A stretch of 64,000 bases of DNA. Origin: an uncultured Myxococcales bacterium. GTDB taxonomy: Bacteria > Myxococcota_A > Bradymonadia > UBA7976 > VGTA01. How positions within the stretch are numbered: position 1 is the first letter of the stretch; each line of letters starts with the position of its first letter. Below the pieces are notes generated by a model that saw only the letters and a list, made by a program, of their open reading frames with translations, ran no database searches and was not told the DNA's origin. Positions 8,139-37,639 of the stretch are shown one piece after another. The DNA lies in contig CAKZRU010000041.1 in NCBI GenBank assembly GCA_937146725.1, forward strand, positions 5,154 to 69,153. Reading direction: 5' to 3'. Both the position numbers and the translations under genes were made by a program.

Positions 8139-11100
8139 ATGATCAACTATCTAATCAATACGCAAAAGCTTTTGAGTCGTATGCACCTGTTTTTTATGGG
8201 CAGTATGATCATACTCAGTGCCTTAGGCTGTGGTCGAAGTGAGCTTCAATGCGATACCCACTTGGACTGTGCCAATGGTGAGGCCTGTATTCAATCTCAA
8301 TGTCTGACCGGCCCAGCCTGTGTAGAAGGGCTTTGCCCAAGCACCCAAGAATGCGTCGCTGAAATTTGCATAGATCGAGAATTACTCAAAAGCGAATGTG
8401 ATGAGCTTAATGCTTGTCCTGAAGGCTTAAGTTGCATCGAAGGCCGTTGTTTGCTGACCTGCGAAGGCGAGCAATGTGTGACGCCACCTCCAGAATGCAC
8501 TGAGGATGTTGAATGTGGTGATGGGCGAATTTGCCAAGACTTTAGCTGTGTTGAAGGTTGCAATTTTAACATACAATGCCCAGAAAATTATGACTGTGTG
8601 GATAATACTTGTGTCGCCTTGGCCTGTGTTGATGTTGACTGTCCTCAGGGCTTTGAATGTGTAGAGGATATGTGTGTTCCCAATGAAATCTGCGAGGAAA
8701 ACAGTGATTGTCCGGAAGGCTTAGTATGCGATTTAGGCCTCTGCCTTGATGTACCTTGTCAACAGGATGATGACTGTCTACAAGGCCAGCAATGTGTAAA
8801 TAATCAATGTATTGCCGCCCCTCAGTGCTTAAACTCAGCTGAATGTCCACGAGGCTTTGACTGCGTTTTAGGTGTATGTCGCTTTAATCCGGAATGTAAC
8901 TCGGATGATGATTGTGATGAGGGTGAAATCTGTTCAGCTAATGCCTGCATTCCATTTTTGGCTTGTATGGATAACAGTGACTGCCCACCCAACTTTGATT
9001 GCGCCGAAGGGCGCTGTGAGTTTAGTGGGCGTTGCAGTGATGACTTAGATTGTCCACCCATTGCCCTTTGCTTAGAAGAAGTCTGTGTCGAGAATGCTTG
9101 TCGAACGAGTCAAGAATGCGGAGTTGGCTCTGAATGTCTTGATAACCGCTGTGTGGAAGCTCCTGAATGTAGGGTCAATGGAGACTGTCCTTTTGGGACT
9201 CGCTGTGAGGATAGTCGCTGTGTAGAAGCTCCTGCTTGCCAAGTAAACACCGATTGTTTAGCTGGTGAATCATGTATCAATAATGTGTGTACGCCAAGTG
9301 GTTGTGAAAGCGCGGGGATTACCTGTCCACCCAATACCAACTGCATAAATGATGTATGTGCACCAAGTTCATGTCGAATCGATCAAGATTGCCCTCGTTC
9401 ATTCTCTTGTATCGATCAAGTTTGCTTGCCTACCTTATGTGAGCAAGATGCTGATTGTGGCTTAGGGTCAATCTGTCGGGCAGGGCGTTGTTTCTTCCCA
9501 GCGAGATGTATGAGTGATAATGAATGTGCTGGTGGTGAGCGGTGCTTGGCGGGTGTATGTACTCCGCAAGGCTGTAGTGTTGACCGAGACTGCCTAGATA
9601 ATGAGCAATGTGAAGCAGGTCGCTGTGTGGCACTAAGCTGTGTAAATGACATCGACTGTGGCCCCGAAGTTTACTGTATTGCCAACCAATGCATTCCGGA
9701 TTTAGTTTGCCAAAGTGCCGATGATTGTCCTGGTGGCATTCCCTGTGTGAATCGTCGCTGTCGCCTTGGTGATAATTGTGAGCGTGACAGTGACTGTCCC
9801 GTTGGCTTGGAATGTGCCTTTGGTGAATGCTTGGAAGTGCCGGTTTTAGAGTGCGCGCAGGACAGAGATTGTGCTCAAGGTCAGCGCTGCGAGTTTGGAC
9901 AGTGCACCGGAGAGGTGAATCTTTGCCAAAGTGACTTTGATTGTGGACCGGGCTTCACTTGTTCGGGTGGAGTATGTGTAAGCAATGATTGTATGAATGA
10001 TAGTCAATGCCCTGCCAATGAGATTTGTCAAGCGGGTCTTTGTGTACCAGCACCGGAATGTCGAGTCAGTACAGATTGTGGGCCAAACGAAGAATGTCGT
10101 AGTGGAAGCTGTGTCTTTACGGGTGAATGTCGTAATAACTTAGAATGCCAAGACCCCTTTATTTGTGTTGATTTTGCCTGTGTGCTCGATGGCGCTTGTG
10201 GACCTGATAACCCTTGCCCAAGTGGAGAGACCTGTATTAATCGCACCTGTATTCCAAATAATGGCTGTATACAAGATAGTGATTGTGGCTTGGGTGAAAG
10301 CTGTCGAGCGGGTCGCTGTCTCTTTACAGGAGAATGTCGTCTACCAAGAGATTGTCCGGTTAACTTTACCTGTCGCAACTTTGTTTGTGAGGCACTAAAC
10401 CAGTGTGTTGCTGACGTGGATTGTGGACCAGGTTCAAGCTGTGTGAATGGCCAGTGTGTATTTACGGGAGAATGTCAAAATGACATGGAATGTACTGGCT
10501 CTGATCGCTGTGTTGACTTCCTTTGTGTGCCGGCTTTACAGTGTGGACCAGGCCGCTTGTGTCCAGTAGGCGAAGAATGTATGGACGGCCTTTGTGTATT
10601 TAATGGCGAATGCCGAAATAATAACGACTGTCCTGCACTCAACTCATGTATCAATAACCAATGCGAAGAAACCGGACGCTGTGATCGAGATAGTGATTGT
10701 GCGGCAGGGCTTGTTTGTGATGCGCTGAGTCAACGCTGTGTTGCAGATATTGACTGCGCAAATGATGCCCAATGTGAAGCAGGGCAACAGTGTATTGGTG
10801 GGCTGTGTCGTGATGTGCTTGGATGTACACGAGATGCCGATTGTGAGTCGGATCAATACTGTGAGTTAGCTGCAAACTTATGCTTGGCTCGTCCGGATTG
10901 CTTTACCGATCAAGAATGTGCGGCAAATGAGCGTTGTGATCAAGGAAGCTGCGTGCCTACTTCTTGTAGTAGTGATGATGATTGTAATGCCGAGCAAAGC
11001 TGTGCAGCCGGTCGCTGTATTCCACGTCTTTTCTGTGGTGATGACTCCGATTGCTTTATTCCAGGCACACAGTGCATCAACAACGTTTGCGAAGTGCCCA

Positions 11101-12998
11101 ATGGCTGTACTAATGATGCTGAATGTGGACCATTTCAAGCGTGTTTAGCAGGTGCGTGTATTCCTGCTCCACCAAGTATCTGTCAACGAGATGAGGACTG
11201 TCCGGGTAGCTTGGTCTGCGAATTTGGACTTTGTATTCCCAATCAAGGCTGCGGTGGTGATAATGATTGCCCAAGCGGTCAAGTTTGTGAAGCTGAAACC
11301 TGCATTCCGGCACCAAGTGCTTGTCGCATTGATGCAGAATGTGCCAATGGTCAAGTCTGTGATCTTGACTTAGGGGGTGTATGCGTTGATGCACCAGCAT
11401 GTCGAGTCAATGAAGATTGTAATTTAGGAGAAATCTGTCGGGGCGCCTTGTGTGTGGCCGGCTGCGTAATTAGCGATCGCTGTCCACAGGGTACACGCTG
11501 TATAAATAATTTCTGCCAAGAAGGCTTAGGCTGTAATAGTAATGATGAATGTATGTCGGGTTCGGTCTGTGATTTAAGCACTGGCGAATGTGTAGTGGGA
11601 GAGTGTAGCCAAGACAGTGATTGTGCCAATGGGGCAGTATGCTCAAACTTTAGCTGTGTTGACCCAAGTGCCTGCACAACAAGCCAAGATTGTCCGGTAG
11701 GCCAGCTTTGCTTAAGCGGAAGTTGTGTTGAAAGTGATCGCTGTGACCCAAATGTAGAAATCATAGATATTGTTTTGGGCGGGATTGGTGATGAAATTGG
11801 ACTCAGTGTAGATACCAGTGGTCGTGAAAATCAATATCAGGCCAGCTGTGGGGGTGGTGCTCAATCGGGAGATCAGCCAATTGCCGTACGCGTCAATGCC
11901 ATTGGCTTATTTACGGCAACAGTACTCAGCGCTCAAGGTTATGATACTGTACTCTTTATGCGTTCTCGCTGTGAAGTGGAAGACAGCCAAATTGTCTGTA
12001 ATGATGATAGTAATGGCCTGCTGAGTGAGATCAGTACACCTATTCTGACACCGGGCATCTATTATGTATTTCTTGATGGCTTTGGATCAGCACGAGGCGT
12101 GGCCGAATTACAATTTAGCCTGACTTCACTGACAGAATGTACACAGGATAGCGATTGTGAAGGTGCTCCATGTGTTGATGGAGTATGTGGGGCTCCCGAA
12201 TGCGTTGGCGATATTGACTGTGCGCCCAACGGAATTTGTAATGCGGGTATTTGCGTAGATGGCACTCGCTGTCAAGTAGACAGTCAGTGTGCGGCCGATG
12301 AAATCTGTGAAAATCGAAGCTGTGTACCGGCTGAATGTCTACAAGATACCGATTGTGGTGTACGCCAAATCTGTAATGAAAATCGCTGTGAGCGACCAGA
12401 ATGTCGCCAAGATGCAGACTGCCCGAGTGGAAACATTTGTGATGTAGGTCGCTGCATTGAGAGCTGTCGAGTCGATGCCGACTGTGATGATATCTTTGCG
12501 ATTTGCGAGGCCAACAGCTGTGTTCCGGCAGAATGTTTAAGAGATGATCAATGTGCTCAGGATGAAAGCTGTGATGCCGGACGTTGTATCAGTGGTAATG
12601 GCGGTGGTGGAACCGGTCAAATTGGTGATCCATGCGTGAATGATAGTTTGTGTAGCAGTGATTTAATTTGTGAAAATGCTCAATGTGAGTCTGCCGAAGG
12701 CCTATGTGCAGAAGTAACCGACTGTGGTGGAACCGGCGCCTGTCTAGGTGGTAACTGTGTACCAGCACCTAGCTGCCAAACCGCCGATGATTGCAGTGGA
12801 TTAATTCCTATTCCTATTCCCCTACTTTGTATTAACAGCCAATGCCGATCGGCTTTTGTCCAATGTAGCTTAAACCAAGATTGCGGTGATGGACAAAGTT
12901 GTGCCTTTGGTGTTTGTCTGCCGATTCCAGCGAATGAATGCTTAAGAGATACAGACTGCGGTAATGGTCGCTTATGTGAGAATGGCTCATGTCAGTAG
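8139..12998 (+). CDS. giant (1619 aa) secreted cysteine-rich repeat lipoprotein: ~60-65 tandem 4-Cys modules (C-x3-4-[DN]-x-[DE]-C-x2-G-x2-C-x4-5-C) with one embedded PPC-like beta-sandwich domain (~aa 1205-1330)
   Basis: Lipobox MIILSALGCGRSE; module period ~22-25 aa repeated throughout (e.g. CRIDQDCPRSFSCIDQVC, CEQDADCGLGSICRAGRC, CSVDRDCLDNEQCEAGRC); insert IVLGGIGDEIGLSVD...DTVLFMRSRC...GIYYVFLDGFG...LQFSL matches PPC-domain pattern. Confidence 0.8.
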   Translation: MINYLINTQKLLSRMHLFFMGSMIILSALGCGRSELQCDTHLDCANGEACIQSQCLTGPACVEGLCPSTQECVAEICIDRELLKSECDELNACPEGLSCIEGRCLLTCEGEQCVTPPPECTEDVECGDGRICQDFSCVEGCNFNIQCPENYDCVDNTCVALACVDVDCPQGFECVEDMCVPNEICEENSDCPEGLVCDLGLCLDVPCQQDDDCLQGQQCVNNQCIAAPQCLNSAECPRGFDCVLGVCRFNPECNSDDDCDEGEICSANACIPFLACMDNSDCPPNFDCAEGRCEFSGRCSDDLDCPPIALCLEEVCVENACRTSQECGVGSECLDNRCVEAPECRVNGDCPFGTRCEDSRCVEAPACQVNTDCLAGESCINNVCTPSGCESAGITCPPNTNCINDVCAPSSCRIDQDCPRSFSCIDQVCLPTLCEQDADCGLGSICRAGRCFFPARCMSDNECAGGERCLAGVCTPQGCSVDRDCLDNEQCEAGRCVALSCVNDIDCGPEVYCIANQCIPDLVCQSADDCPGGIPCVNRRCRLGDNCERDSDCPVGLECAFGECLEVPVLECAQDRDCAQGQRCEFGQCTGEVNLCQSDFDCGPGFTCSGGVCVSNDCMNDSQCPANEICQAGLCVPAPECRVSTDCGPNEECRSGSCVFTGECRNNLECQDPFICVDFACVLDGACGPDNPCPSGETCINRTCIPNNGCIQDSDCGLGESCRAGRCLFTGECRLPRDCPVNFTCRNFVCEALNQCVADVDCGPGSSCVNGQCVFTGECQNDMECTGSDRCVDFLCVPALQCGPGRLCPVGEECMDGLCVFNGECRNNNDCPALNSCINNQCEETGRCDRDSDCAAGLVCDALSQRCVADIDCANDAQCEAGQQCIGGLCRDVLGCTRDADCESDQYCELAANLCLARPDCFTDQECAANERCDQGSCVPTSCSSDDDCNAEQSCAAGRCIPRLFCGDDSDCFIPGTQCINNVCEVPNGCTNDAECGPFQACLAGACIPAPPSICQRDEDCPGSLVCEFGLCIPNQGCGGDNDCPSGQVCEAETCIPAPSACRIDAECANGQVCDLDLGGVCVDAPACRVNEDCNLGEICRGALCVAGCVISDRCPQGTRCINNFCQEGLGCNSNDECMSGSVCDLSTGECVVGECSQDSDCANGAVCSNFSCVDPSACTTSQDCPVGQLCLSGSCVESDRCDPNVEIIDIVLGGIGDEIGLSVDTSGRENQYQASCGGGAQSGDQPIAVRVNAIGLFTATVLSAQGYDTVLFMRSRCEVEDSQIVCNDDSNGLLSEISTPILTPGIYYVFLDGFGSARGVAELQFSLTSLTECTQDSDCEGAPCVDGVCGAPECVGDIDCAPNGICNAGICVDGTRCQVDSQCAADEICENRSCVPAECLQDTDCGVRQICNENRCERPECRQDADCPSGNICDVGRCIESCRVDADCDDIFAICEANSCVPAECLRDDQCAQDESCDAGRCISGNGGGGTGQIGDPCVNDSLCSSDLICENAQCESAEGLCAEVTDCGGTGACLGGNCVPAPSCQTADDCSGLIPIPIPLLCINSQCRSAFVQCSLNQDCGDGQSCAFGVCLPIPANECLRDTDCGNGRLCENGSCQ

Positions 12999-15124
12999 TC
13001 GCCAAAAAACTATCTGCTTTAATTGAAAATGCAGGGTTTTCTTATGAGTTCTTAAATATAGCATCTACGAGTGATCCTTTGGTTCAGGAGGTCACACTCG
13101 ACTTAGATGAGGTGAGCTTAGGCGTACTGTTTATTGCAAGAAAGCTTTGGTATGTAGACACTCATCAGCAGATTGATGAGGCTATACAAAAGGGGGCAGT
13201 GGCGGTTTTAGTCAGCGACTCAAGTCAAGTGAGTGAAAAGACCTTACACAATACGCAGGTGCCCATTGTGCTTTTAGAGCATGAAGATCCAAGCTTGGGG
13301 CTCATTTGCGCGCGCTTTTATGAGCATCCCTGTGCACAGCTTAAAGTGTATGGGGTGACCGGTACCAACGGAAAAACTTCAGCGGTCACCTATTTGGCAG
13401 ACTTACTCACCGCATTAGGGGAACGAGTAGCAGTAATTGGTACGGTGGAATACCGCTTTGAACATCGGCGCTTAGCCGCAGCAAACACCACACCGGATGC
13501 CTTGGTGATTCAGCGCTTTGCAAGACATGCACTCGACCTAGGAGCGACTGCTTTAACCCTAGAGGTCAGCTCTCATGCGCTTAGCCTTGATCGGGTGGCT
13601 GGGGTTTATTTTGATGCTGTGGGCTTTACTTCTTTTGGGCGAGATCACTTAGATTTTCATGGTAGCTTAGAGGGCTATCGCAATGCCAAGGGGCGTCTTT
13701 TTGATGATTACTTAATGAACTCGCTTCAACATGGTAAAACACCTATTGCTGTGGCACATGATGATGTTGAAGGCCAAGCGATGTTAGGCCGCACACCAGG
13801 TGGCGTCGAAAGAGTCTATTGTCATGTGCAAACAAAAGTAACGTCTGAAACAAAAGTAACATCTGAAACAAAGTCCTTAAGCTTAGTCTCTGATCACTCT
13901 CATAGTCTTAAGCTTAATATTCAAGATGAAGTCAGCTTAGCAGGTATTACGCTTGAAGGTACTTATGCAACTCAGCAAGACAACACTGAGCTACCGGCCA
14001 TCAAGGTTGGACTCATTGGAGACTACCATCCGGCAAATGCTGCGATTGCTTTGGGTATGCTACTTAAAACTCACCAAGAACGTTTTTTGGATGCTTGGTT
14101 CAGTTTGCAAAAGACGCGGGGCGTACCAGGGCGAATGGAAAGAGTCATACTACCCGATGCATTATCTTATGAAACTCGGGTCGCTTTGGTAGACTACGCG
14201 CATACGCCTGATGCGATTACTCGTGCGATTCAAGCCATTAAAGCGGTGCATCAAGGGGCACTCTCAGTTATCATCGGCTGTGGGGGTGATCGTGACCGGG
14301 GTAAACGACCTCAAATGCTGAAAGCTGCCTTACAAGAAGCAGATCAGGTTTGGCTAACGAGTGATAATCCTCGGAATGAGTCACCACAGCAAATTATCGA
14401 TGATGCTTTGAGCTTGGCTGAGCTTGAACCCGCACTTTATGCTGAGTTCAAGGCTAAACTCGTGGGCAAAATTGTCGATCGACGTGAATGTATCGCACAA
14501 GCATGGCAAGGGCTTACCAAAGAGGGCGCGCTACTGATTACCGGCAAAGGACATGAATCCTATCAAGAAGTTCAAGGGCGTCGTTATCGTTTACAAGATC
14601 ACGAAGCACTGAGAGCAGGAGCTTGGGCGGAACATAAGCAACTTGATTTACAGCATGTACCTTATCTACAGAGTTGTCTCTTTAATGATACTACTCTAGA
14701 TGAGAATAATCATTTGGCTCGACTTTTACTTTTACTCCGAGAGGCCTGCTTTAGACCGAATGGATTGGTGTTACGCTGTTTAAAACAGACAGACGGTGAA
14801 GAGCCTAGTTTATCCACAGATCACTTCATCATTCATTGCCATAAAGCCGAAAGCTCTACTTTTGAGTCTTATACAAACTTTAGTGATTTCTTGTGGACTC
14901 AATTAGCTGGATTTAGTCCACAACATAAAGAGATTCATGTTTTAGTGTCTAGATTTGTGGGGTTTGGACAAGTGTCTGGATTTATTGATGAAATCTTAGG
15001 TATGGCTAATGAGTTTGCCTACCCTCATGCAGAACTAACGATCAAAACTGATTTAAGTGATTGCAAGCCGACCGGTGGATGGTCAAAGCAAAGTACCGGA
15101 CCTAAAATTCCGTCTTTAGTTTAG
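12989..15124 (+). CDS. murE: Mur ligase family protein, MurE-like (UDP-MurNAc-L-Ala-D-Glu:meso-DAP ligase) with an internal insertion and a ~230-aa C-terminal extension of unknown function
   Basis: P-loop GVTGTNGKTS; DYAHTPDA; TSDNPRNE (DNPR motif, meso-DAP-type MurE); N-terminal domain GVLFIARKL...DEAIQKGAVAVL; ATG 12989 overlaps stop of upstream gene (12996-12998) by 10 nt; extension after ...EALRAGAWAEHKQLD has no Mur ligase motifs. Confidence 0.7.
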   Translation: MSVVAKKLSALIENAGFSYEFLNIASTSDPLVQEVTLDLDEVSLGVLFIARKLWYVDTHQQIDEAIQKGAVAVLVSDSSQVSEKTLHNTQVPIVLLEHEDPSLGLICARFYEHPCAQLKVYGVTGTNGKTSAVTYLADLLTALGERVAVIGTVEYRFEHRRLAAANTTPDALVIQRFARHALDLGATALTLEVSSHALSLDRVAGVYFDAVGFTSFGRDHLDFHGSLEGYRNAKGRLFDDYLMNSLQHGKTPIAVAHDDVEGQAMLGRTPGGVERVYCHVQTKVTSETKVTSETKSLSLVSDHSHSLKLNIQDEVSLAGITLEGTYATQQDNTELPAIKVGLIGDYHPANAAIALGMLLKTHQERFLDAWFSLQKTRGVPGRMERVILPDALSYETRVALVDYAHTPDAITRAIQAIKAVHQGALSVIIGCGGDRDRGKRPQMLKAALQEADQVWLTSDNPRNESPQQIIDDALSLAELEPALYAEFKAKLVGKIVDRRECIAQAWQGLTKEGALLITGKGHESYQEVQGRRYRLQDHEALRAGAWAEHKQLDLQHVPYLQSCLFNDTTLDENNHLARLLLLLREACFRPNGLVLRCLKQTDGEEPSLSTDHFIIHCHKAESSTFESYTNFSDFLWTQLAGFSPQHKEIHVLVSRFVGFGQVSGFIDEILGMANEFAYPHAELTIKTDLSDCKPTGGWSKQSTGPKIPSLV

Positions 15125-15159: not shown

Positions 15160-16518
15160 CTAGCCGATTTGCACGAGACGCGGCGCTCTTTTGAGCTTAG
15201 CTCGCCGTTCTTCATCGGTCCAAATTGATCCATCTTTCCAATGTAAAGCTAAGACTTTTTCCAAAGGAATACCCAAGATCTCTGGGGGAGCATTGGGCTC
15301 TTCATCGGGAATTGGAAATAGTCTTGTTTCAAAAACACCATGATCAAAGGGAATACCGGGCGGTGGGCTGACTCTGACTAACTGCTCATGAAGTCCACGC
15401 TGTTCATATTCCAAGGCTCGGTGGATACAGTATGGATTATTTCCCGCTTTACCCATGGTACAATGCGAAGTCCACGTACAGCCACCCATGCAAACATCAG
15501 CATAATAACATTCTTTACAGTAGCCCCAAAGGTCATCTCGGTTACGTAAACGGGTATGGCTCACCTCTTTAGCATTATGCAAAACATCAATGATGGCTTC
15601 GCTATGCGTGTAGCCACCGGTAAAGTAGTCAGAGGGCAAAGAAGGGCATCCTTTGATTTTACCGTCGGCTTCTACACCAATGCAGTTTTTTCCTGCTTTA
15701 CAGCCACTCCAATGTGTGCCCGACTCTCCGCCATAGCGTAAGATTTCTTCAAACGGACCAAAATAGCCAATGTTATTCCCCGGAAATAAGCGGGCACCGG
15801 CCGGTTTAAGTTTTTGGGTTTTAATCCAAGAGAGCAAAGGGAAAACATCAAGCAAGTCATACGGCTGTAAAAGCATGTCTGGACGGTCAGCGCCACGACC
15901 CATAGGTACAGTGATTTGGATTTGCCAACCGATTGCTCCCAAATCAATCAGTAATTGAGAAAGAGCAGGAAGCTCCGGAAGAGAAAGGCGATTAATTTGC
16001 GTATTCATGCTTACGCCCATTGAACTTTTGGCCACTCGCTCTGCACCATCAACCGCAGCTCGCCATGAGCCTAATACTGCCCGTTGAGCATCATGAGTGT
16101 GCTCAAGGCCATCGATAGAGAAGGAAATATGCCTAAGGCCAGCATCTTCGGCTCGCTTGACTCGCTCGGCATTCATCCCTCGACCGCCGGTGGTCATAGT
16201 GCATGCCATGCCACTTTTAGTGATCGCGGCCGCAATAATATCCCAATCTTCACGCAGATAGGCCTCGCCCCCAATTAAGGTGACCTCGGTAAAACCACTA
16301 TCTTTGAGTTGCTTCACCACATCAAGACATTGCTCAGTGCTCAGTTCATCATTACGAGCCTTGCCGGCTCGAGAGCCACAGTGCTTACAGCCTAAATCAC
16401 AGGCTAAGGTGATTTCCCAAACGCAGTATCTTGGCACCACTTGATCAGGAGCTGATTTTTCAGCAAATCGGGCAAATTGATTGGGTTTTTCTGTAGATGA
16501 CTTAATACTTGAACTCAC
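15160..16518 (-). CDS. radical SAM / SPASM-domain enzyme (PqqE/anSME-like peptide- or protein-modifying maturase) with ~80-aa C-terminal tail
   Basis: CDLGCKHC (Cx3Cx2C radical SAM cluster motif) near N-terminus after VWEITLA; GGEAYLR SAM-binding region; SPASM auxiliary cluster motifs SGCKAGKNCIGVEADGKIKGCP ... GYCKECYYADVCMGGCTWTSHC. Confidence 0.85.
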   Translation of the reverse strand: MSSSIKSSTEKPNQFARFAEKSAPDQVVPRYCVWEITLACDLGCKHCGSRAGKARNDELSTEQCLDVVKQLKDSGFTEVTLIGGEAYLREDWDIIAAAITKSGMACTMTTGGRGMNAERVKRAEDAGLRHISFSIDGLEHTHDAQRAVLGSWRAAVDGAERVAKSSMGVSMNTQINRLSLPELPALSQLLIDLGAIGWQIQITVPMGRGADRPDMLLQPYDLLDVFPLLSWIKTQKLKPAGARLFPGNNIGYFGPFEEILRYGGESGTHWSGCKAGKNCIGVEADGKIKGCPSLPSDYFTGGYTHSEAIIDVLHNAKEVSHTRLRNRDDLWGYCKECYYADVCMGGCTWTSHCTMGKAGNNPYCIHRALEYEQRGLHEQLVRVSPPPGIPFDHGVFETRLFPIPDEEPNAPPEILGIPLEKVLALHWKDGSIWTDEERRAKLKRAPRLVQIG

Positions 16519-16589
16519 GGAGATACCTAAACTTGATCGATGAGGTTTGTAAAAGAAGAACGACTTGGTCGGTTATAACTTGGTCTTGG

Positions 16590-17138
16590 TTATGGCTTGG
16601 CTTTATTGACCTTATCCATTTCTTCTGTGCCAGCCATTTCACCGGTCGAAGGTACGCCAGAATCTTCTTGTGGAATATCTTCTCTAGCGGGTTCCATCAT
16701 GATCGGACCGCCCACGAACTTGCTGACAGGAGAAGCACCATAAACTTCTTGTGGAATCTCTTCTCTAGCGGGTTCTATCTTTATTTCATCTTCAGTGGCC
16801 ATAATGCCAACCGGTGGGCCTCCGTATAGAGATTCTACCATCCCGGTGGGTGTATCAATCACTTTGGTACCAGGGGTATTTTCAATTACTTCGTCCTCAT
16901 CATCACACGCCCCAAAACTTAGGCTTGCACTTAATAAGCCAAGAGCAAGTTTTGACGTTTTTGAAAACTTAGAAGCTGTTTGAGATACAGCAGTATTACT
17001 GATGAGTTGTCCACCACAGAAAGTACATTCAAGTGCAAAGAGTTCAGCACTGCTCAAGCTAGAGTCAACTTGATGATGTCTAGCGCAAGTATTACAACGA
17101 GTTAAGCTATCTTTGGAAACAGCAATGATTTTTTTCAT
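16590..17138 (-). CDS. zinc-ribbon (CxxC-x19-CxxCG, FmdB-like) single-pass membrane protein with periplasmic acidic C-terminal tail containing duplicated EPAREEIPQE motif
   Basis: CNTCARHH...ECTFCGGQL; N-in signal-anchor SKFSKTSKLALGLLSASLSFGAC; IEPAREEIPQEVYG / MEPAREDIPQEDSG duplication; lies between M15 peptidase and rSAM genes on the same strand. Confidence 0.6.
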   Translation of the reverse strand: MKKIIAVSKDSLTRCNTCARHHQVDSSLSSAELFALECTFCGGQLISNTAVSQTASKFSKTSKLALGLLSASLSFGACDDEDEVIENTPGTKVIDTPTGMVESLYGGPPVGIMATEDEIKIEPAREEIPQEVYGASPVSKFVGGPIMMEPAREDIPQEDSGVPSTGEMAGTEEMDKVNKAKP

Positions 17139-17188
17139 AATTCTACCTTTTTAAGTAGGTACTTAACCCGCTAAATATCTATAATAAA

Positions 17189-18151
17189 CTATTGTTTGTC
17201 AATGATGAGCTCCGGCCTATACTCAAAGTGCATGGTATCATGGTGATACCACCACCCCCCCCAAATAAAGCCATAGCGTTTAAAGGTTTCGACAATTTCT
17301 ACAGGAAAGCTGTTTTTGTAAGGAATTAAGCCTTGGGCATTTCGGCCATAGACTTTCATTGTCCATTTCCAATAGTTGGAATATTTAACTCCGATATCAA
17401 TCGCCGCTCCAAAACTGTGTACACTTAGACGTTGAGTCCCCTTTATTTTACGCCAAGTAAAAGCACCGGCACTAGGTTCATAATAACGCTTAAACTTTTT
17501 AGGCAGACAGTTCTTAAGGTCGGTATAAATAGCTTGTAAGCGTTGATCGATCTTGTGTAAACGAGTGACCTTAAGTTTTTGCTTGCCCCAATAAACTGTG
17601 GTGAGCTGCTGAGCCACTTCAGCTTTGGATCGACCATATAGTTTTTTGAAAAAGACCTCATCTCTGAGACGACCGGGTTCAAAGTTTACAGGTAAATCTT
17701 TGGGTAGTTGGGAAGTGTGTGGATAAAGCTGTAAAAACTGCTCCGCTAGGCGTGCATGATTGAGTGCATGATCAAAATCCTTAAAGCCCTGTTGCTTCCA
17801 AATCTGAGCCTGTTCCACTTTAGAAAGCTTGGACCAAGTGAAAAGGTCATACTTTTGTTTCGGTCGCTCCCAAGCATGTTTGGTATTGTTTTTAAACACT
17901 AAAGAGCCTTGGGTTTCGGTATGCTTTGAGGCGCTTTTAATCGAATCTGAATAAGCAATCAGTAAAGCTTGAATCTCTGATGGAAGCTGTTGTTCTTCTT
18001 GGTTGAGTATACGAGAAGTTGGGTTGGCGGTAATGACAAGCTCAGGTTGAGAGGGAGGACAGTCAAGATCTTGAGCAAGGCAAGTCATACTTACAGTCAT
18101 ACTCATAACTAAATACATGCAACAGAAATGTTGTCCGTGATGTTTGCACAT
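17189..18151 (-). CDS. secreted M15-family zinc metallopeptidase (VanY / D-Ala-D-Ala carboxypeptidase-like, peptidoglycan peptidase)
   Basis: N-terminal signal; SVHSFGAAIDI (SxHxxGxAxD zinc ligand motif) and GGWWYHHDTMHFEY (second His/Asp motif) typical of M15/VanY peptidases. Confidence 0.7.
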   Translation of the reverse strand: MCKHHGQHFCCMYLVMSMTVSMTCLAQDLDCPPSQPELVITANPTSRILNQEEQQLPSEIQALLIAYSDSIKSASKHTETQGSLVFKNNTKHAWERPKQKYDLFTWSKLSKVEQAQIWKQQGFKDFDHALNHARLAEQFLQLYPHTSQLPKDLPVNFEPGRLRDEVFFKKLYGRSKAEVAQQLTTVYWGKQKLKVTRLHKIDQRLQAIYTDLKNCLPKKFKRYYEPSAGAFTWRKIKGTQRLSVHSFGAAIDIGVKYSNYWKWTMKVYGRNAQGLIPYKNSFPVEIVETFKRYGFIWGGWWYHHDTMHFEYRPELIIDKQ

Positions 18152-30157: not shown

Positions 30158-33100
30158 TCAGTGATAAATGGTGACTTTAAGGATATTTTGATCGTAACTC
30201 AATACAGCAAAGTCATCCTTACCATCATCATTCATATCACCCGCTCCGGAAGTGGCGATCTTTTGTCCGCTCGGTGCTGATGCACTGAGTGATACACCAC
30301 GCCCCACAGTGACTTGGTCAGAACCAAAGCTTGCATTACCATCATTATAGAAGACAAAGACCTGCTCGGCATTACTGAGTGTATTATCTTCATTATTGGC
30401 AATCAAGTCCATAAAGCCGTCCCCATTAATGTCTCCTGCCAAGTCAAAACGTGAACCAAAGCGATTTTCACCACGGCGGAAGCAATCGAGTTGCTGTAGA
30501 TCACTTGACATCACTACCATAAGCTTATCTGACGCATTACCTACCACAAAGTCAGCGTTATCATCACCGTTAAGATCTACACCACCTCTGAGCATCGTTC
30601 CAAAACTTGTTGGCCCTAGCTCAGCACAGGGATTATCCACTTCGATAAAGTCTGGATTTGTACCATCAAAAGTCAGTTCTCCACCATTCGTAGCAAGCGC
30701 TGTTTCTAGGGTGCTGCCACCGTAGACTAAGTGGAGGTGGTCAATGCTGTCACCGGCCGAGAAGATAAGCTCAGAAGTACCATCTCCATCAAGATCACCA
30801 GCGGTCGATACTTGTACACCGGCATTATTGTAGGTGCTTGTCAATTTGTAATATCCATCAGAAACACTTGGTGTCACAACATCTTGAATCACGGCCGGCC
30901 ACTGGCTACGACCTTCAATGATGGTGACAAAGGTGTTGTAGTTAAAGCTAGGATCAAAACCACCACCAAGCACAATATCATCACAACCAACCGCAAGACC
31001 TTGAACCAAATCACCCCGATTTGATAGAGCAACGCGTGAGTGTCCGGGACTGAAAATAACACTATCGGCTGTGGCCAATTCGCTATTAGTACAGTTTTGA
31101 GCTAACGGACAGCCAAAGTATACGGCAAAGGCTGACCCATTAAAATCGAGCGGATAGCCCGCTACAACAATGTCAGGTGCTCCGTCTCCATTCACATCAC
31201 CACCACTAGTGACCTCAATACCAAAGAGTAAATTACTCATTTCTACGGGGATATTGAGTGCCAAGGTGTTGCTATTTAATACACTTAAATCATCCATACC
31301 CTTAATGATTAAGACATCACTGATAAAGTCTGGACCAACGGATTGGGCCGAGTTGACCATTAGGTCATCATAGCCATCACCATCAAAGTCGCCGATTGAG
31401 TTAAGAGCGTTTCCTGTGGTGAAAGTCGGCTGGGTACTATCCCAATTACCGCTTCTTGGGTTAAAGTTCACAGTGGCTCGGTTGAGTCGAGTATCGATGA
31501 GCGCTGAACGAACTGCACCAAGGCGACCAACATCATCACGAGCGCGAAGGGATAAGTAGAAACTCTTGTTAGGCGGCAAGTTCTCGATAGACAAAGTCTC
31601 AATGGCACCCGGCTGAACGCTTGGAATAAGTTCATTAAGCAAACGAGCAGACTCCCAAGTTAACTCACTGTTGATATTGTTGAAAGACCAACGAGCCTCA
31701 TAGGCTTGAACTCGATCTCCACCACTTTGATCATCACCAGGTGCAGTAAAGCTTACTTCAACTTCTGGAATACGCTTGTTCATCACAGTTGGGTTAAGTG
31801 TGATTCCGGTGGGGGCTGAAGGGTCAGCGATAATGGTAAAGCTTTGGCAACGCTCATTTTGTGCTTCATCACTGATGCATAATTGGTAGCTTGCTTCTCT
31901 TGCCGGTGGGTTAAGCCCAGTGATACGTAGTTCAACTGTATCTTCATTGGGCGCAGGGTCATCTACACTAATCTCTAAGGGGAGCTGTACGCCATCAATC
32001 GAGATTCGAGCGCTACGAGAAGACGTGCTGGGTGCTTCTGTAACGGTTGCAACAAGTGTCATTTGCTGTCCGGCTGCTTCAGGGTCATTATCCTGTAACA
32101 CCTGTCTTACGCCTTCTGCATTAAGGGCAGGCGAGGTAATCACAATCGAGCTTGGGGCAATTAAGTCAACTCGGATATTTTTGCCTAAAGATGAGGTGAC
32201 TTCATTGTTTAAGCGAATTCGAGTTGAAACACTGTGTTCCCCTTCTGGAATTGTAACTTCGCTGAAAACAATATCTCCGGTACTTTGATCGATAGTTGTT
32301 GAGCCCAAAAGTTCACTACCATCTAAAAGTAACTCCGCCTGAGCGCTTGCACATTGTGGATCCAACAGATCAACACGACCACTAATATCAAGTCTTAGCT
32401 TGTTATCAGCAGTGACGATCCCCTGATTTGGCCCAAGAAGTTGGCCACTAATCAGACTGGTAATTTGACTGCTACACCCATCGATCGCAATATCGATATT
32501 CTTTGCTTGCGAAGTACTTGGGTTTTCGCAGGCATCTTCGCTTCTGACACTTAAGGCATGTGGCCCCGGAGGTAGGGTTAAGACCGCTGTGAGAGTTTGA
32601 CTATCAGCCACAGTAGTGATTAATTGAGCAGGTAAAGTGGGTAAGCGCTCCTCACCACTGTAGATTTTTAGTTCTTGGCCGGCTTCTAGTCCAGTAGCGT
32701 CAATACTTACATTTACTTGGAAACCGTCAGCTGGAGACTGATTTGCATCATCACTGGCAAGCAGAGTTTGTCCATCATCAACCCCATTTAAGACCAAAGT
32801 TGGTGCGCTTAAGTCTACTGAGATTGGCACAGACAAAGGTGCAGACCAATCTGGACGATCACCAATCGTATTAAAGCCCGCTACGCTACCAGCGTTACCA
32901 CAGCTATCTTCGGCAACAAGAGATAAGAGATGATTGCCCTCTGATAAAAGAATGGTCGAAAAGGTAAAGGTAGGATTTGAGACCGTTTCTCGTTGTACGA
33001 TGATGCCATCAAGGCCCAAGCTTAAAGAGACCGGTTCGCCTTCTACCCAACCAGAGCTTACTTGAGGTTGATACTGAGCACCGGCCTGTGGCTCAAGATC

Positions 33101-36100
33101 ATCCGCGATATTGAGACATTGGTTGGCCATAGGTCGTAATAACTCGGGAGTAGGTGCTTCAGTGTCGATGAGCAGTAAAAGAGGAGCAAAGCTTTCATCA
33201 TCTTGGTTGGGTAAAGAGTTACCGACAACATCAGTACCTGCCAGATAAATAAAGTGTTCACCTTGAGGCAAGTTTACATTTGAGATAGAACCACGACCTT
33301 CCGATATTTCAACGCTACCTAAGGGAACTTGGCCTGGCAAAGAGAAAACTCGGACTAAGCGGTTATCTTCAATACCATTGACTTGGAAATCAACAGTAAA
33401 ACTTGCGTTACGACTGCTTGCACTCGCATTGATGCGCTCTTGTGCGTTAATGCATTGATCATCATTAAGATCTTCGGCAATCGAGATTTCGACTACGTTT
33501 GGCGCGGTGCAATCACTTAGAATTGAAATGGTATTTGAACGTAAATCAACGCCATTTTCACGAGCGACTAAGGAAATGTCATGCTGGCCGTCACTTAAAG
33601 TGATTGGACAGCGGATATTGTTCCCCTGCGCACTTGTACTACATTGACCTTGAGAAGCATCGCTTTGATTACCACATAAGGGAGACAAAGCACCGGCTTG
33701 GTTAGAAGCACATAAAGCGAACTCAACATTTTCAATATCGGTAAAACCCGCACTTCTTACATCAACTTCGATTTGACAGCCGGCTGTTTCTAAATCCTGA
33801 TCTTCGCTTCGGTTAATTAAGGCTTGATCTCGAGGCTCAATAATCACAATGCTCACGTTGGTATCACCTTCGATATTTTGACTAAACTCTTGTGTGTTTC
33901 CACAAGCATCGCTCACTGTCGCGGTAAGTAGTTGACTGCCATTGGTATAGGTGAGTAGGCCTAAATCTACAGTTTCACATTCTTCTTCTCCTAAAGTGTT
34001 AGTGATGGCCTCTTCACTTTGGGCTGGAATGGTGGCTACAGTCATTACTTGTCCTGCTGCACCACAGACTCTTACGCGAGTTGGAAACTGAATGCCGGGG
34101 ACGAGGCCATCATTATCATCCAGTAGATCAAGAATTGTATCGGGAGCCGGTAGAACGAGTTCTACTTCAGGTGGAGTTCGGTCAACTGTAAGGCTGAATT
34201 GCTGAGACATGGGTAAGCCACTCACATCCATCGCAACAAACTCTAAATCGCATTGGCCATCCGGTAAGGTCACTGTTGAAAAGGTAATTAAGGCCGATTG
34301 TCCAAGATTGATTACTGCACCATTTTGCTCATCAACAAGTTCTCGTTGATCATTGCCTGGTAACTGACAATAAACTTGGACCTGAGGAATACTATTTGCA
34401 GCTAAAGCATCAGCATCGACTTCAAAGCGCATTTGGAAGCCTGGTGCTGATGAACGATCTTGAACTTGATTATTTAGACATTCAGCGACATCACTTAACG
34501 GACGGACCGAGAGCAGAGGCCTAATTTCATAGCTGGTAAGATTTAGGGATTGACCACGTCTTTGCTCTGATACTGGCGTTAAGATGATCTCTGTAGCTCC
34601 ATCAAGACTTGTCGGTAGGGTTACAGCGAGCTCACCTAAACCAAGAGAGTCTAAGGTCAGAGGGCCAACAATCATGCTTGGCTCAGCATTTACATTAAGC
34701 TCGAAGTTTACGATCTCATTTGCATTACCGCTCAGTGAGAGAGATATTTGTAAGCCTTCGGTTTCATTGTCAATATCATTAAGCAAGGTGACTCCAGAAC
34801 CATCGCTCCAATTGGTGACTCTGAGTGGTGCCTGACAGCCTTCTGCATTGAGAGTAAAGTCAAACTCACTGCTTGCGCCCGCACAGTCGATGACCTGCAT
34901 GTTGATGGTGTTTTCACCAGGAATAAAGTTATAGCTAGGTGTTCTTACAATCCCTTGGGCTACTTGATCAGTACAGGTGGGTAAGCTTCCGTTTAAGCTA
35001 AAGCAAACTCTTTCAGCACTTTCATCACTCAAAGAGAACTCAACCGAAGATTGAATGCAGTCTGAAAGATCAGAGTTTTGGTCATTGGCTAAGGTGAGTG
35101 AGCCATTGGCCGGATTTAGAGGGCCTACTACCGGTACTTCGTTATCGATCAGTACTTCGATAGGATCACTAGGGATAACAGAAATATCAACCCCACCGCT
35201 GGTGCCTGAAATGACTAAGCTGTAGCGACCATCGGCCAATTGCTGATTGGTTAAATCCAAAGAAGTGCTGTAAAAGTTGCTATCTTGAGCCTGTAGCTGT
35301 CCAAAGCGGGCAACCTGACCGCCTTCACTATACAAAGTATAATTGAGCTCGGTATTACCTTCCGAGAATTGACGAGCTTCTCCACCAATAAAGAATAAGT
35401 CAGAAAAACAAGCATAAGTTCGACCATTGGAATTAGGCGCAACAATAGGATCAAGGATTTCAAAAATAGGTTCATCTGTAATGACCGGATAAAATGAGCT
35501 CGCTAAAACCGGTTCGTTTTGTCCGGTCATAGCGACCGGCTTACATGAGTAAGTATCGGCTCTTGGGAATGAGACAAAAATCGGTCCTTGATAGACACCA
35601 GATTCACCTTCGACAGCGCTTAATTCACTACGTAAAACGGAACTAATGCTAAGGACTTCAGAAGAACCACCTTCACCTCGTGCACAATGGATTTCAATCG
35701 GATAATCCTCACTCTCTCTTTGATCTTCGACTCTGATCGTAAATTGAGTTTGTAAACCTTCATTTTCTGGATCGATATCAGTGTTGATAAGCTCGAGTTG
35801 AGCCGGATCTACGATTGATAAACGTGGGGTTACACCATCAAAGCAAAAACTGTAACTTGGGGTTTGATGCACGCCTCCACATTGATCATCACCACTAATT
35901 GTAATTTGATGGCCACAGAGATAATCGCCTTCAAGTTCGATCGTAAAACGACCTTGACCGTCTAGCGTCAGTGTTTCAGGCGCATTTTCGAGTGGCGGCT
36001 CAATGGTTAATCTAACCTCTGAGTTTGCAGGAAGATTAGAAGTAAAGCCATTAATTCTCCACTTTAAAATCGCTTCGCCTTGAGCATTAAAGCTAGTGAT

Positions 36101-37333: not shown

Positions 37334-37639
37334 TCAGACGAATTGAATTAACTGAGCGTTGCTCAGTTCATTGAGAAATTCCTCAAGATCACTTTCTGCA
37401 GATGAAAGAGTTGTATCAAAAGTTTTGATTACCGCTTTGAGTAAGTCGTCTCGATTGCATGTCGACTTGAGAATCAGTGACCAAATAAATGTACCTACTT
37501 CATTCAATTGACGGATTTCATCACGATTGGTATCAAGAATAAGCGCTTGCTCACCAATAATACGGGAAACAACATAAGCATTAGGTTTAATGACCGGTTG
37601 AGATGCTGAAGTTTCGTCAGATTGAGAAGGGCTTGTCAT
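37334..37639 (-). CDS. PqqD-family protein (stand-alone RiPP recognition element-like peptide chaperone)
   Basis: VIKPNAYVVSRIIGEQALILDTNRDEIRQLNEVGTFIWSLI...DLLKAVIKTFD...AESDLEEFLNELSNAQLI matches PqqD profile (P...v..d.e.vll....g....LN.tg..IW.ll.....D....f...L...gli). Confidence 0.65.
   Translation of the reverse strand: MTSPSQSDETSASQPVIKPNAYVVSRIIGEQALILDTNRDEIRQLNEVGTFIWSLILKSTCNRDDLLKAVIKTFDTTLSSAESDLEEFLNELSNAQLIQFV

Follow-up and report, generated by a model that had tools for sequence, protein, structure and literature searches.

Ribosomal α-keto-β-amino acids serve as pharmacophores of protease inhibitors and as bio-orthogonal handles, and spliceases are, to our knowledge, the one described way in which they arise. 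The described members (PlpX, PcpX, RhaX/RasX and RcsX) are radical S-adenosylmethionine (rSAM)/SPASM enzymes, the "X proteins," which remove a tyramine equivalent at X-Tyr-Gly (XYG) sites of their "A proteins" and leave an α-keto-β-amino acid (PMC11414181). The cyanobacterial type I needs a small Y protein, and hundreds of binary pathways in other phyla have neither a Y protein nor a recognition element (RRE) of the kind used by peptides that are made on ribosomes and modified after translation (RiPPs) (PMC11414181). PlpX has been described as a SPASM rSAM enzyme of a Nif11/NHLP-associated subclass, IPR026482 (PMC11002830), and the natural splice tag of its substrate PlpA reads PIRP-L-YG-LPI (PMC10533398). 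A genome survey traced Tyr-Gly (YG)-rich precursors beside PlpX-like rSAM enzymes to 189 genera; it predicted 939 systems, and 27 pairs have been validated (PMC10849128, PMC10533398), and the keto-amide makes the products inhibitors of Ser and Cys proteases (PMC11626197). Here we analyse a stretch of 64,000 nucleotides (the window) from an uncultured Myxococcales bacterium (contig CAKZRU010000041.1, positions 5,154 to 69,153), in which an rSAM/SPASM gene directly follows a gene for a zinc-ribbon protein. We consider it likely that the two form a binary splicease-substrate pair of the known spliceotide class, with a precursor of a zinc-ribbon/lipoprotein type.

The radical SAM enzyme and its zinc-ribbon partner

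The rSAM gene (15160 to 16518, minus strand) codes for a protein of 452 amino acids (aa) that NCBIfam models and an AlphaFold2 (AF2) model lead us to predict as a tyramine splicease, or X protein. In an NCBIfam scan it matched two models over their full length, TIGR04103 at 464.8 bits (nif11-class peptide radical SAM maturase 3) and TIGR03913 at 436.3 bits (GDL motif peptide-associated radical SAM/SPASM maturase); no other family exceeded 152 bits. The core identity to NCBI-annotated members of these two families, which are not experimentally validated spliceases, is 46 to 48% (48% to TIGR04103). By the margin over other models (about 300 bits) and this identity, the enzyme appears to fall in the clade that contains the PlpX-type family. 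Its cysteine set is complete, in keeping with the original prediction of a SPASM-type peptide or protein maturase. The CX3CX2C motif of the radical SAM cluster (C40, C44 and C47; 16378 to 16401, minus strand) and the SPASM cysteines C273, C291, C334, C337, C343, C347 and C364 are invariant in an alignment of 25 homologues, the last five lying in the auxiliary-cluster motif CX2CX5CX3C (C334 to C347) and in GNNPYC (C364; together 15427 to 15519, minus strand). The same prediction had called the enzyme PqqE/anSME-like, which is not borne out, as the PqqE model scores 75.1 bits against a cutoff of 381.35 and the anaerobic sulfatase-maturating enzyme (anSME) is not among the 25 best NCBIfam families.

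The AF2 model of the enzyme is confident (predicted local distance difference test [pLDDT] of 85.6), and the nearest solved folds found by Foldseek are SkfB, PqqE, SuiB, anSME and ChlB, all of them peptide-modifying rSAM/SPASM enzymes (E values of 1e-15 to 1e-12 and TM of 0.52 to 0.58 for the first four). A sequence search of the PDB returned neither a splicease structure nor a close relative, the closest entries being SkfB and PqqE. Past the SPASM domain there is a structured C-terminal extension (residues 376 to 452; 15163 to 15393, minus strand) that AF2 builds from strands 376 to 384 and 395 to 402 and helices 419 to 424 and 435 to 441, at a pLDDT of 83 to 97. This extra tail of about 80 aa had been singled out as a peculiarity of the enzyme; it is present but not peculiar, as extensions of 40 to 144 aa past the last SPASM Cys occur in every clade of the rSAM superfamily. 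A Pfam scan of the extension for an RRE, PqqD or PlpY-type domain gave no match, and a canonical RRE is, as had been claimed, neither fused nor adjacent. In a neighbour-joining tree, the enzyme lies within a clade in which the zinc-ribbon gene is upstream, sister to an alphaproteobacterial Nif11-type clade. The clade with the zinc-ribbon gene downstream groups with the Nostoc TIGR04103 protein, and TIGR03913 is the outgroup. The tree intermixes zinc-ribbon, Nif11 and TIGR04103 clades, and the same precursor architecture beside two rSAM clades (the upstream and downstream types) suggests an ancient origin or repeated recruitment.

The gene directly upstream (16590 to 17138, minus strand; 182 aa) codes for the very probable substrate or A protein, for which adjacency, motif and HMMER matches predict a zinc-ribbon leader, a lipoprotein-like signal and a disordered XYG tail. 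The ribbon (C15xxC18...C38xxC41 with an inserted short helix; 17016 to 17096, minus strand) has four Cys that are conserved family-wide, and we propose it as a cytoplasmic leader or recognition element. AF2 folds it over residues ~10 to 50 with a pLDDT of 80 to 86 (strands 12 to 15, 21 to 23 and 44 to 46; helix 30 to 35) and leaves the acidic tail fully disordered, as expected of a leader-plus-core substrate. An earlier description of this protein was right on the two CxxC pairs, the hydrophobic segment at residues 63 to 78 and the duplicated EPARE[E/D]IPQE motif, but not on the likeness to FmdB. Pfam and NCBIfam searches gave only a sub-threshold match to DUF7879 (17.3 bits against 26) and none to FmdB or Nif11, and by these profiles the ribbon is a generic 2xCxxC ribbon, not one of the FmdB type. 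Behind it come a basic n-region and the hydrophobic segment, which ends in a lipobox-like F-G-A-C78 (16905 to 16952, minus strand); the full context is S-F-G-A-C78, after a K/R-rich region and a hydrophobic run.

The tail carries two XYG sites. Predicted splice site 1, M-V-E-S-L-Y105-G-G-P-P (16812 to 16838, minus strand; X is Leu), fits the family consensus X-Y-G-φ-P-P and is kept in close homologues, such as P0122 with EALYGAPP. Predicted splice site 2, identified from sequence and alignment, is I-P-Q-E-V-Y133-G-A-S-P (16728 to 16754, minus strand; X is Val) and follows the EPAREEIPQE repeat. A scan of the 64-kb window in all six frames returned no match to the family motif besides these two, and among open reading frames (ORFs) of at least 20 aa between 15000 and 18500 none besides the zinc-ribbon protein is Cys/Gly-rich or bears a YG. 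The locus had been described as one without a visible precursor peptide, a statement that the XYG sites at Y105 and Y133 contradict. As for the EPARE[E/D]IPQE duplication, it is the upstream half of a splice-site repeat unit, with the second copy followed by DSG instead of VYG, a decayed site; this degenerate third repeat, EPAREDIPQE-DSG-VP (16665 to 16694, minus strand), has lost its Tyr and aligns (A2) with Q-P-x-Y-G-A-P sites of homologues.

Homologues of the rSAM enzyme are abundant in Myxococcota, at about 60% identity. Scanning one genome per GTDB species for GNNPYCIH, which was specific enough for this purpose, brought up 569 relatives, of which the 80 best loci entered a comparison of neighbourhoods. 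They come from Polyangiales, Sandaracinaceae and Bradymonadia (among them the cultured Lujinxingia vulgaris TMQ2, locus L052), from some Planctomycetota metagenome-assembled genomes (MAGs) and from one alphaproteobacterial group. The ORF that directly precedes the rSAM gene on its strand codes, in 64 of 83 loci, for a 2xCxxC ribbon and a tail with at least one Tyr-Gly. The zinc-ribbon/YG gene lies downstream in loci L072, L075, L076 and L078 to L081 and is divergent in L047, while in L030 and L046 the contig ends cut the zinc-ribbon gene and its YG tail is still visible. When 1878 flanking ORFs were clustered all against all, the conserved clusters were the rSAM enzyme (with its antisense shadows) and the zinc-ribbon family; the next cluster covered 8 loci, and no third conserved gene, including a Y protein or RRE, was found among these ORFs. 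The conserved unit is the rSAM/zinc-ribbon pair, not a trio, and an enzyme adjoined by a conserved, motif-bearing partner is not the orphan that it had been taken for. The suggestion that the zinc-ribbon protein was worth testing as partner of the rSAM enzyme proved well placed.

In 65 adjacent zinc-ribbon proteins, Gly follows 155 of the 181 Tyr residues beyond the conserved Cys, where about 19 would be expected from the Gly frequency of 0.107. The consensus over 137 aligned sites is P(-6..-4)-[Q/V]-P-X-Y-G-[I/L/A/V/G]-P-P-[D/E], where X is in most cases L, E, V or A, and a basic stretch and a hydrophobic run lead to a lipobox-like [AGS]-C in 63 of the 65. A reciprocal HMMER search, with a profile from the window protein and five homologues against 1.84 billion representatives, returned 95 proteins. 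The family set that we scored, 98 members, combines these matches with the homologues of the query set: the ribbon was present in 92, the lipobox-like Cys in 92 and at least one YG in 89 (the exceptions being mostly fragments), and 286 of the 321 tail Tyr residues stand in YG. The family architecture is a 2xCxxC ribbon, a basic and hydrophobic segment up to a lipobox-like Cys, and an acidic, Pro-rich tail with one to five copies of the motif. Two distant members that were looked up (P0167 and P0199) are each directly followed by an rSAM gene.

Several loci carry two zinc-ribbon/YG genes in tandem beside one rSAM gene, either upstream (L014, L022, L025 and L065) or downstream (L072), a precursor multiplication typical of RiPP loci. 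A Myxococcaceae MAG (L081, 8021 to 9340) has a second, paralogous rSAM gene of the same family about 1.1 kb downstream of the zinc-ribbon gene.

Proposed maturation and comparison with described systems

Architecture, adjacency, motif statistics and homology to XYG-associated rSAM families are observed for this pair, and the in silico features that define the class, an rSAM clade of the SPASM type and an adjacent XYG precursor, appear to be present. The Y protein is absent here, yet binary types lack it as well (PMC11414181), so its absence is compatible with membership in the class. The PlpA tag PIRP-L-YG-LPI is nearly superimposable on the consensus of the zinc-ribbon family. The original prediction had found no described system that fits; tyramine spliceases, which act on XYG and often do so without an RRE (PMC11414181, PMC10849128), provide one. 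We regard the feature as real and biologically coherent, and as neither an orphan enzyme nor a new kind of system.

In the pathway that we propose, the chemistry is drawn from the published relatives; what the ribbon does, how the lipoprotein is processed and that the product inhibits proteases are our inferences for this pair. The zinc-ribbon protein would be made with its N-terminal ribbon, a lipoprotein-type signal and a disordered acidic tail bearing two X-Tyr-Gly sites. The rSAM enzyme would bind this precursor in the cytoplasm, before export, plausibly via the zinc ribbon, which would probably serve as leader or activator in place of the Nif11 leader and PlpY, or of the helical leader, of other types; in the structural model, the C-terminal extension of the enzyme is a candidate for the surface at which it docks. 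On the model of PlpX, RhaX and RcsX, a tyramine equivalent (C8H9NO, -135.06 Da) would be lost per Tyr and the backbone rejoined, turning Leu104-Tyr-Gly into α-keto-β-Leu-Gly and Val132-Tyr-Gly into α-keto-β-Val-Gly. The basic and hydrophobic segment would direct Sec export of the disordered tail. Because the conserved [A/G]-Cys suggests a lipobox, Lgt/Lsp processing may come next, with signal peptidase II probably cutting at Cys78 and removing ribbon and signal as the "leader." The end product would be a lipid-anchored periplasmic or surface peptide with electrophilic keto-amide warheads, plausibly an inhibitor of Ser or Cys proteases.

The precursor architecture (ribbon, lipobox and repeated cores) looks unlike that of Nif11/NHLP and DUF1843 precursors. 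It is conceivable, and we put it forward only tentatively, that the zinc-ribbon/lipobox/XYG-repeat proteins are a distinct, uncharacterised spliceotide type, in which the folded ribbon stands in for the leader or the Y activator, Sec/Lgt/Lsp act as exporter and "leader peptidase," and a lipid-anchored α-keto-amide product with several warheads is placed in the envelope of (often predatory) Myxococcota.

Compared with type I, that is, PlpA/PlpX/PlpY and PcpAXY of Pleurocapsa, the enzyme of the window is likewise an rSAM/SPASM protein, and in both cases the precursor gene lies next door, frequently in multiple copies or with multiple sites. The X-Y-G sites share Pro-rich flanks, with L-YG-LPI in PlpA, IA-L-YG-LPP in Nostoc and P-X-YG-φ-PP in the zinc-ribbon family. 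In contrast to type I, the window system has no Y protein, its enzyme scores below the TIGR04103 cutoff, its host belongs to the Myxococcota, a zinc ribbon and lipoprotein-type signal replace the Nif11/NHLP leader with its GG cleavage site, and the disordered acidic tail of the zinc-ribbon family holds as many as five core repeats. The binary systems of Rheinheimera ("type II," with RhaX/RasX and RcsX) also consist of X and A proteins only, without an RRE or Y protein; activation there comes from an element of the leader, and the resulting keto-amides inhibit proteases (PMC11626197, PMC11414181). They differ, by their description and not by a comparison of sequences, in having a helical leader and, as product, a small peptide with disulfide bridges that is spliced at one site, whereas the window system has a zinc-ribbon "leader" with a signal sequence and a predicted membrane-anchored, multi-site polypeptide.

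The reference families point to XYG as well. Ahead of a Nostoc TIGR04103 gene comes a Nif11-like precursor with the core RGSIA-LYG-LPPELF, and behind the gene an overlapping Y-like ORF of 71 aa, for which a Pfam scan gave no match. The TIGR03913 genes of Burkholderia pseudomallei and Azospirillum are preceded by DUF1843/DUF1842 proteins with P-YG-VAI...GDL; members of the reference families used for comparison were found on plasmids. As the precursors of Nostoc, of Burkholderia and Azospirillum and of the alphaproteobacterial group all carry YG sites, every clade of the rSAM superfamily examined is tied to X-Y-G. The alphaproteobacterial precursors, in Mesorhizobium (L069 to L071) and a Brevundimonas MAG (L067), are proteins of about 180 aa that precede the rSAM gene and have a Nif11-like N-terminus, a single IYG in a hydrophobic stretch and a conserved C-terminal domain. 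Two of them stand in tandem in L069, and L071 has a second rSAM-like gene about 2.5 kb downstream.

The TIGR03913 systems resemble that of the window in enzyme identity (46 to 48%), in neighbours with P/M-YG-V/G and in that some substrates are protein sized (212 aa), but their substrates are cytoplasmic helical DUF1843 proteins with a GDL motif and without zinc ribbon, signal sequence or repeats, and the window protein has neither DUF1843 nor the GDL motif. On the B. pseudomallei plasmid (L086, 844 to 1482), a DUF1842-DUF1843 protein of 212 aa is encoded two genes upstream of the TIGR03913 rSAM gene and has AAM-YG-VAI before the GDL helix of DUF1843; by length, organism and domain order, though not by a comparison of sequences, it is Q63NT7. 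Position and sequence make it probably a splicease substrate. The paper that reported crystals of the B. pseudomallei DUF1842/DUF1843 protein in 2024 calls it a "protein of unknown function" and mentions neither the neighbouring rSAM gene nor a role as splicease substrate (PMC10994174). PqqE (with PqqA and PqqD), SkfB, SuiB and anSME share the fold and are likewise cytoplasmic rSAM enzymes acting on a ribosomal peptide or protein, but they show 17 to 22% identity to the window enzyme, carry out other chemistry, and the window pair lacks a PqqD-type RRE. As background for the proposed order of events, anSME modifies its substrate before the substrate is exported.

Among indexed papers, none connected tyramine splicing with zinc ribbons, and a full-text search on TIGR03913 and TIGR04103 found no papers. 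Given the first of these results, and the silence of the B. pseudomallei structure paper on the rSAM gene (PMC10994174), awareness of such substrates is evidently limited. What had looked like an orphan enzyme in a cell-wall operon becomes a clear enzyme-substrate pair that is open to testing. The 2022 survey that defined the splicease types is said to have searched reference proteomes for YG-rich ORFs beside SPASM rSAM genes, and it would very probably have caught cultured Myxococcota. The clade is widespread in Myxococcota (hundreds of species genomes) yet lies outside the two curated NCBIfam models, and therefore its members are annotated just as "radical SAM protein" and "hypothetical protein." Profile hidden Markov models for the rSAM clade and its precursor would mend the annotation of thousands of gene pairs. 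If the proposed pathway is true, a multi-site precursor of the lipoprotein type would extend the splicease class from secreted peptides to envelope-anchored proteins, would offer a natural case of leader removal by signal peptidase II, and would represent, in place of a secreted natural product, a housekeeping-like inhibitor of proteases bound to the envelope.

Points of doubt and alternative explanations

Several observations weigh against the assignment of the pair to the spliceases or against parts of the proposed pathway. The scores of the enzyme are below the curated equivalog cutoffs (464.8 against 725 bits for TIGR04103, 436.3 against 591.75 for TIGR03913), and on these scores it therefore belongs to a sister clade without a curated model of its own and is not an equivalog of either family. 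That PlpX is itself a TIGR04103 member is concluded from the IPR026482 number given in a review, from the matching system architecture and from a number mapping that we presume, with IPR026482 taken to be TIGR04103; the 120 best matches in a search for homologues of the Nostoc TIGR04103 protein did not include the one from Pleurocapsa PCC 7319. Neither site of the window protein has the Pro that the consensus shows at position -2. Of the proposed mechanism, the lipoprotein step is the weakest part. Lipoproteins were judged by a basic n-region, a hydrophobic h-region and a lipobox [LVI][ASTVI][GAS]-C near the N-terminus, and the Cys of the window protein is residue 78, beyond the usual 15 to 35, so that standard rules would not call it; the ribbon in front places the Cys about 60 to 80 residues from the N-terminus. 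Alternatively, the hydrophobic segment might remain uncleaved and act as an N-in membrane anchor. A Planctomycetota member (L076, 7011 to 7679) has the ribbon, then three SVYGAPAF repeats and C-terminal hydrophobic segments, and it lacks a lipobox Cys behind the ribbon. In this arrangement its YG sites would stay in the cytoplasm, and export would thus not be universal.

The alternative that survives best, although we think it unlikely, keeps the same pair and assumes another chemistry at Tyr-Gly: a C-C or C-O crosslink or cyclophane, epimerisation or hydroxylation, without excision of tyramine. Cyclophane-forming rSAM systems typically have short aromatic motifs in repeats, the chemistry of SPASM enzymes is diverse, and the shortfall against both equivalog cutoffs would suit this explanation, as would the nearest solved folds, which catalyse thioether, C-C and Lys-Trp crosslinks. 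A near-invariant Tyr-Gly after a variable residue (L/E/V/A/P/M/D) is, however, the XYG signature of spliceases. The flanks also fit the published splice tag, YG precursors occur in every clade examined, and the enzyme is 48% identical to the cyanobacterial PlpX-type family, all of which favours tyramine splicing.

The zinc-ribbon protein might also be a membrane-anchored partner or regulator, anti-sigma-like or a substitute for the RRE, with the true substrate encoded elsewhere. An N-terminal zinc finger followed by one transmembrane helix is a common architecture of membrane regulators, and the ribbon is the best-conserved part of the protein. This role is nevertheless improbable in view of the tail, whose only conserved feature is the repeated X-Y-G-φ-P-P with 86 to 89% of its Tyr in YG. 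The copy number of one to five and the frequent tandem gene duplication are typical of precursors, and there is neither another motif-bearing ORF in the window nor another conserved neighbour.

The original prediction had seen an undescribed, cell-wall-related modification system made of three genes, the third being an M15 peptidase (17189 to 18151, minus strand; 320 aa). It was correct that the three ORFs are co-directional on the minus strand and that the first is of the M15 type (Peptidase_M15_4, PF13539, 66.7 bits against a gathering threshold of 25). The spacing is as short as claimed, though the exact gaps are 50 nucleotides (nt) between the M15 and zinc-ribbon genes and 71 nt between the zinc-ribbon and rSAM genes, not 51 and 72. 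The arrangement recurs in L089 and L091, and the murE-like gene is convergent downstream, both of which would speak for a larger unit. L089 and L091 are, however, identical or near-identical contigs of the same organism, and these are the only loci with the M15 gene beside the pair. A tblastn search found an M15 homologue in none of 85 related loci, including L006, whose rSAM enzyme is 80% identical and which has 5 kb of upstream flank, so that among the three genes only the pair is kept. The original prediction had named a trio that is not kept together in related genomes as grounds for its refutation, and by this test of its own it fails. A sigma-70-like promoter match just upstream of the zinc-ribbon gene (TTGACA-17-GATATT; 17174 to 17202, minus strand; 10 of 12 positions matching) separates the M15 gene from the pair, albeit weakly, with 9 such sites in the region against 6.6 expected by chance. 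With the precursor present and no third conserved gene, a three-gene system is very improbable, and the M15 gene is a lineage-specific neighbour outside the system. No terminator-like site was found between the zinc-ribbon and rSAM genes, which together with the weak promoter-like site upstream suggests that these two would be co-transcribed.

We give almost no credence to a classical maturase, that is, an anaerobic sulfatase maturase, PqqE or the heme and heme d1 enzymes AhbD and NirJ, since the weak partial matches (AhbD 135 bits, NirJ 99 to 111 bits, PqqE 75 bits) are far below the cutoffs of 500, 515 and 381 bits and about 300 bits under the two peptide-maturase models, and no locus has a pqq, ahb, nir or sulfatase gene next to the enzyme gene, even though one TIGR04103 member bears the UniRef name "Heme biosynthesis pr...".

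Neighbouring genes

The cell-wall context had been taken as part of the system, but the M15 peptidase, MurE and a Cys-rich giant protein are unrelated, lineage-specific neighbours. Together with orf213 and orf266 they were ruled out as system parts by tblastn against the 85 loci, in which the ORFs further upstream than the M15 gene had no homologue either. A stand-alone PqqD-family gene (37334 to 37639, minus strand; PF05402, E = 1.7e-12) is real, as had been reported, with no rSAM or other RiPP enzyme gene nearby. It is 20 kb away from the pair and unlinked to it, and on its own strand it immediately precedes a gene for a 2356-aa protein with FG-GAP and bacterial Ig domains (30158 to 37228, minus strand). 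A role as RRE in trans was ruled out, as the gene precedes this FG-GAP/Ig-like protein and never accompanies the rSAM gene elsewhere.

The MurE gene (12989 to 15124, plus strand), convergent with the rSAM gene on its downstream side, codes for 711 aa (TIGR01085, 375.6 bits) and has a C-terminal extension of about 170 aa past the 472-position profile. It recurs only in the closest relative, L001, where the protein has 690 aa and is extended too. The start of this gene is overlapped by 10 nt by that of the Cys-rich repeat giant (8139 to 12998, plus strand; 1619 aa), which has an N-terminal lipoprotein-like signal. The giant is 74% identical in L001 and has weaker relatives in L066 and L047.

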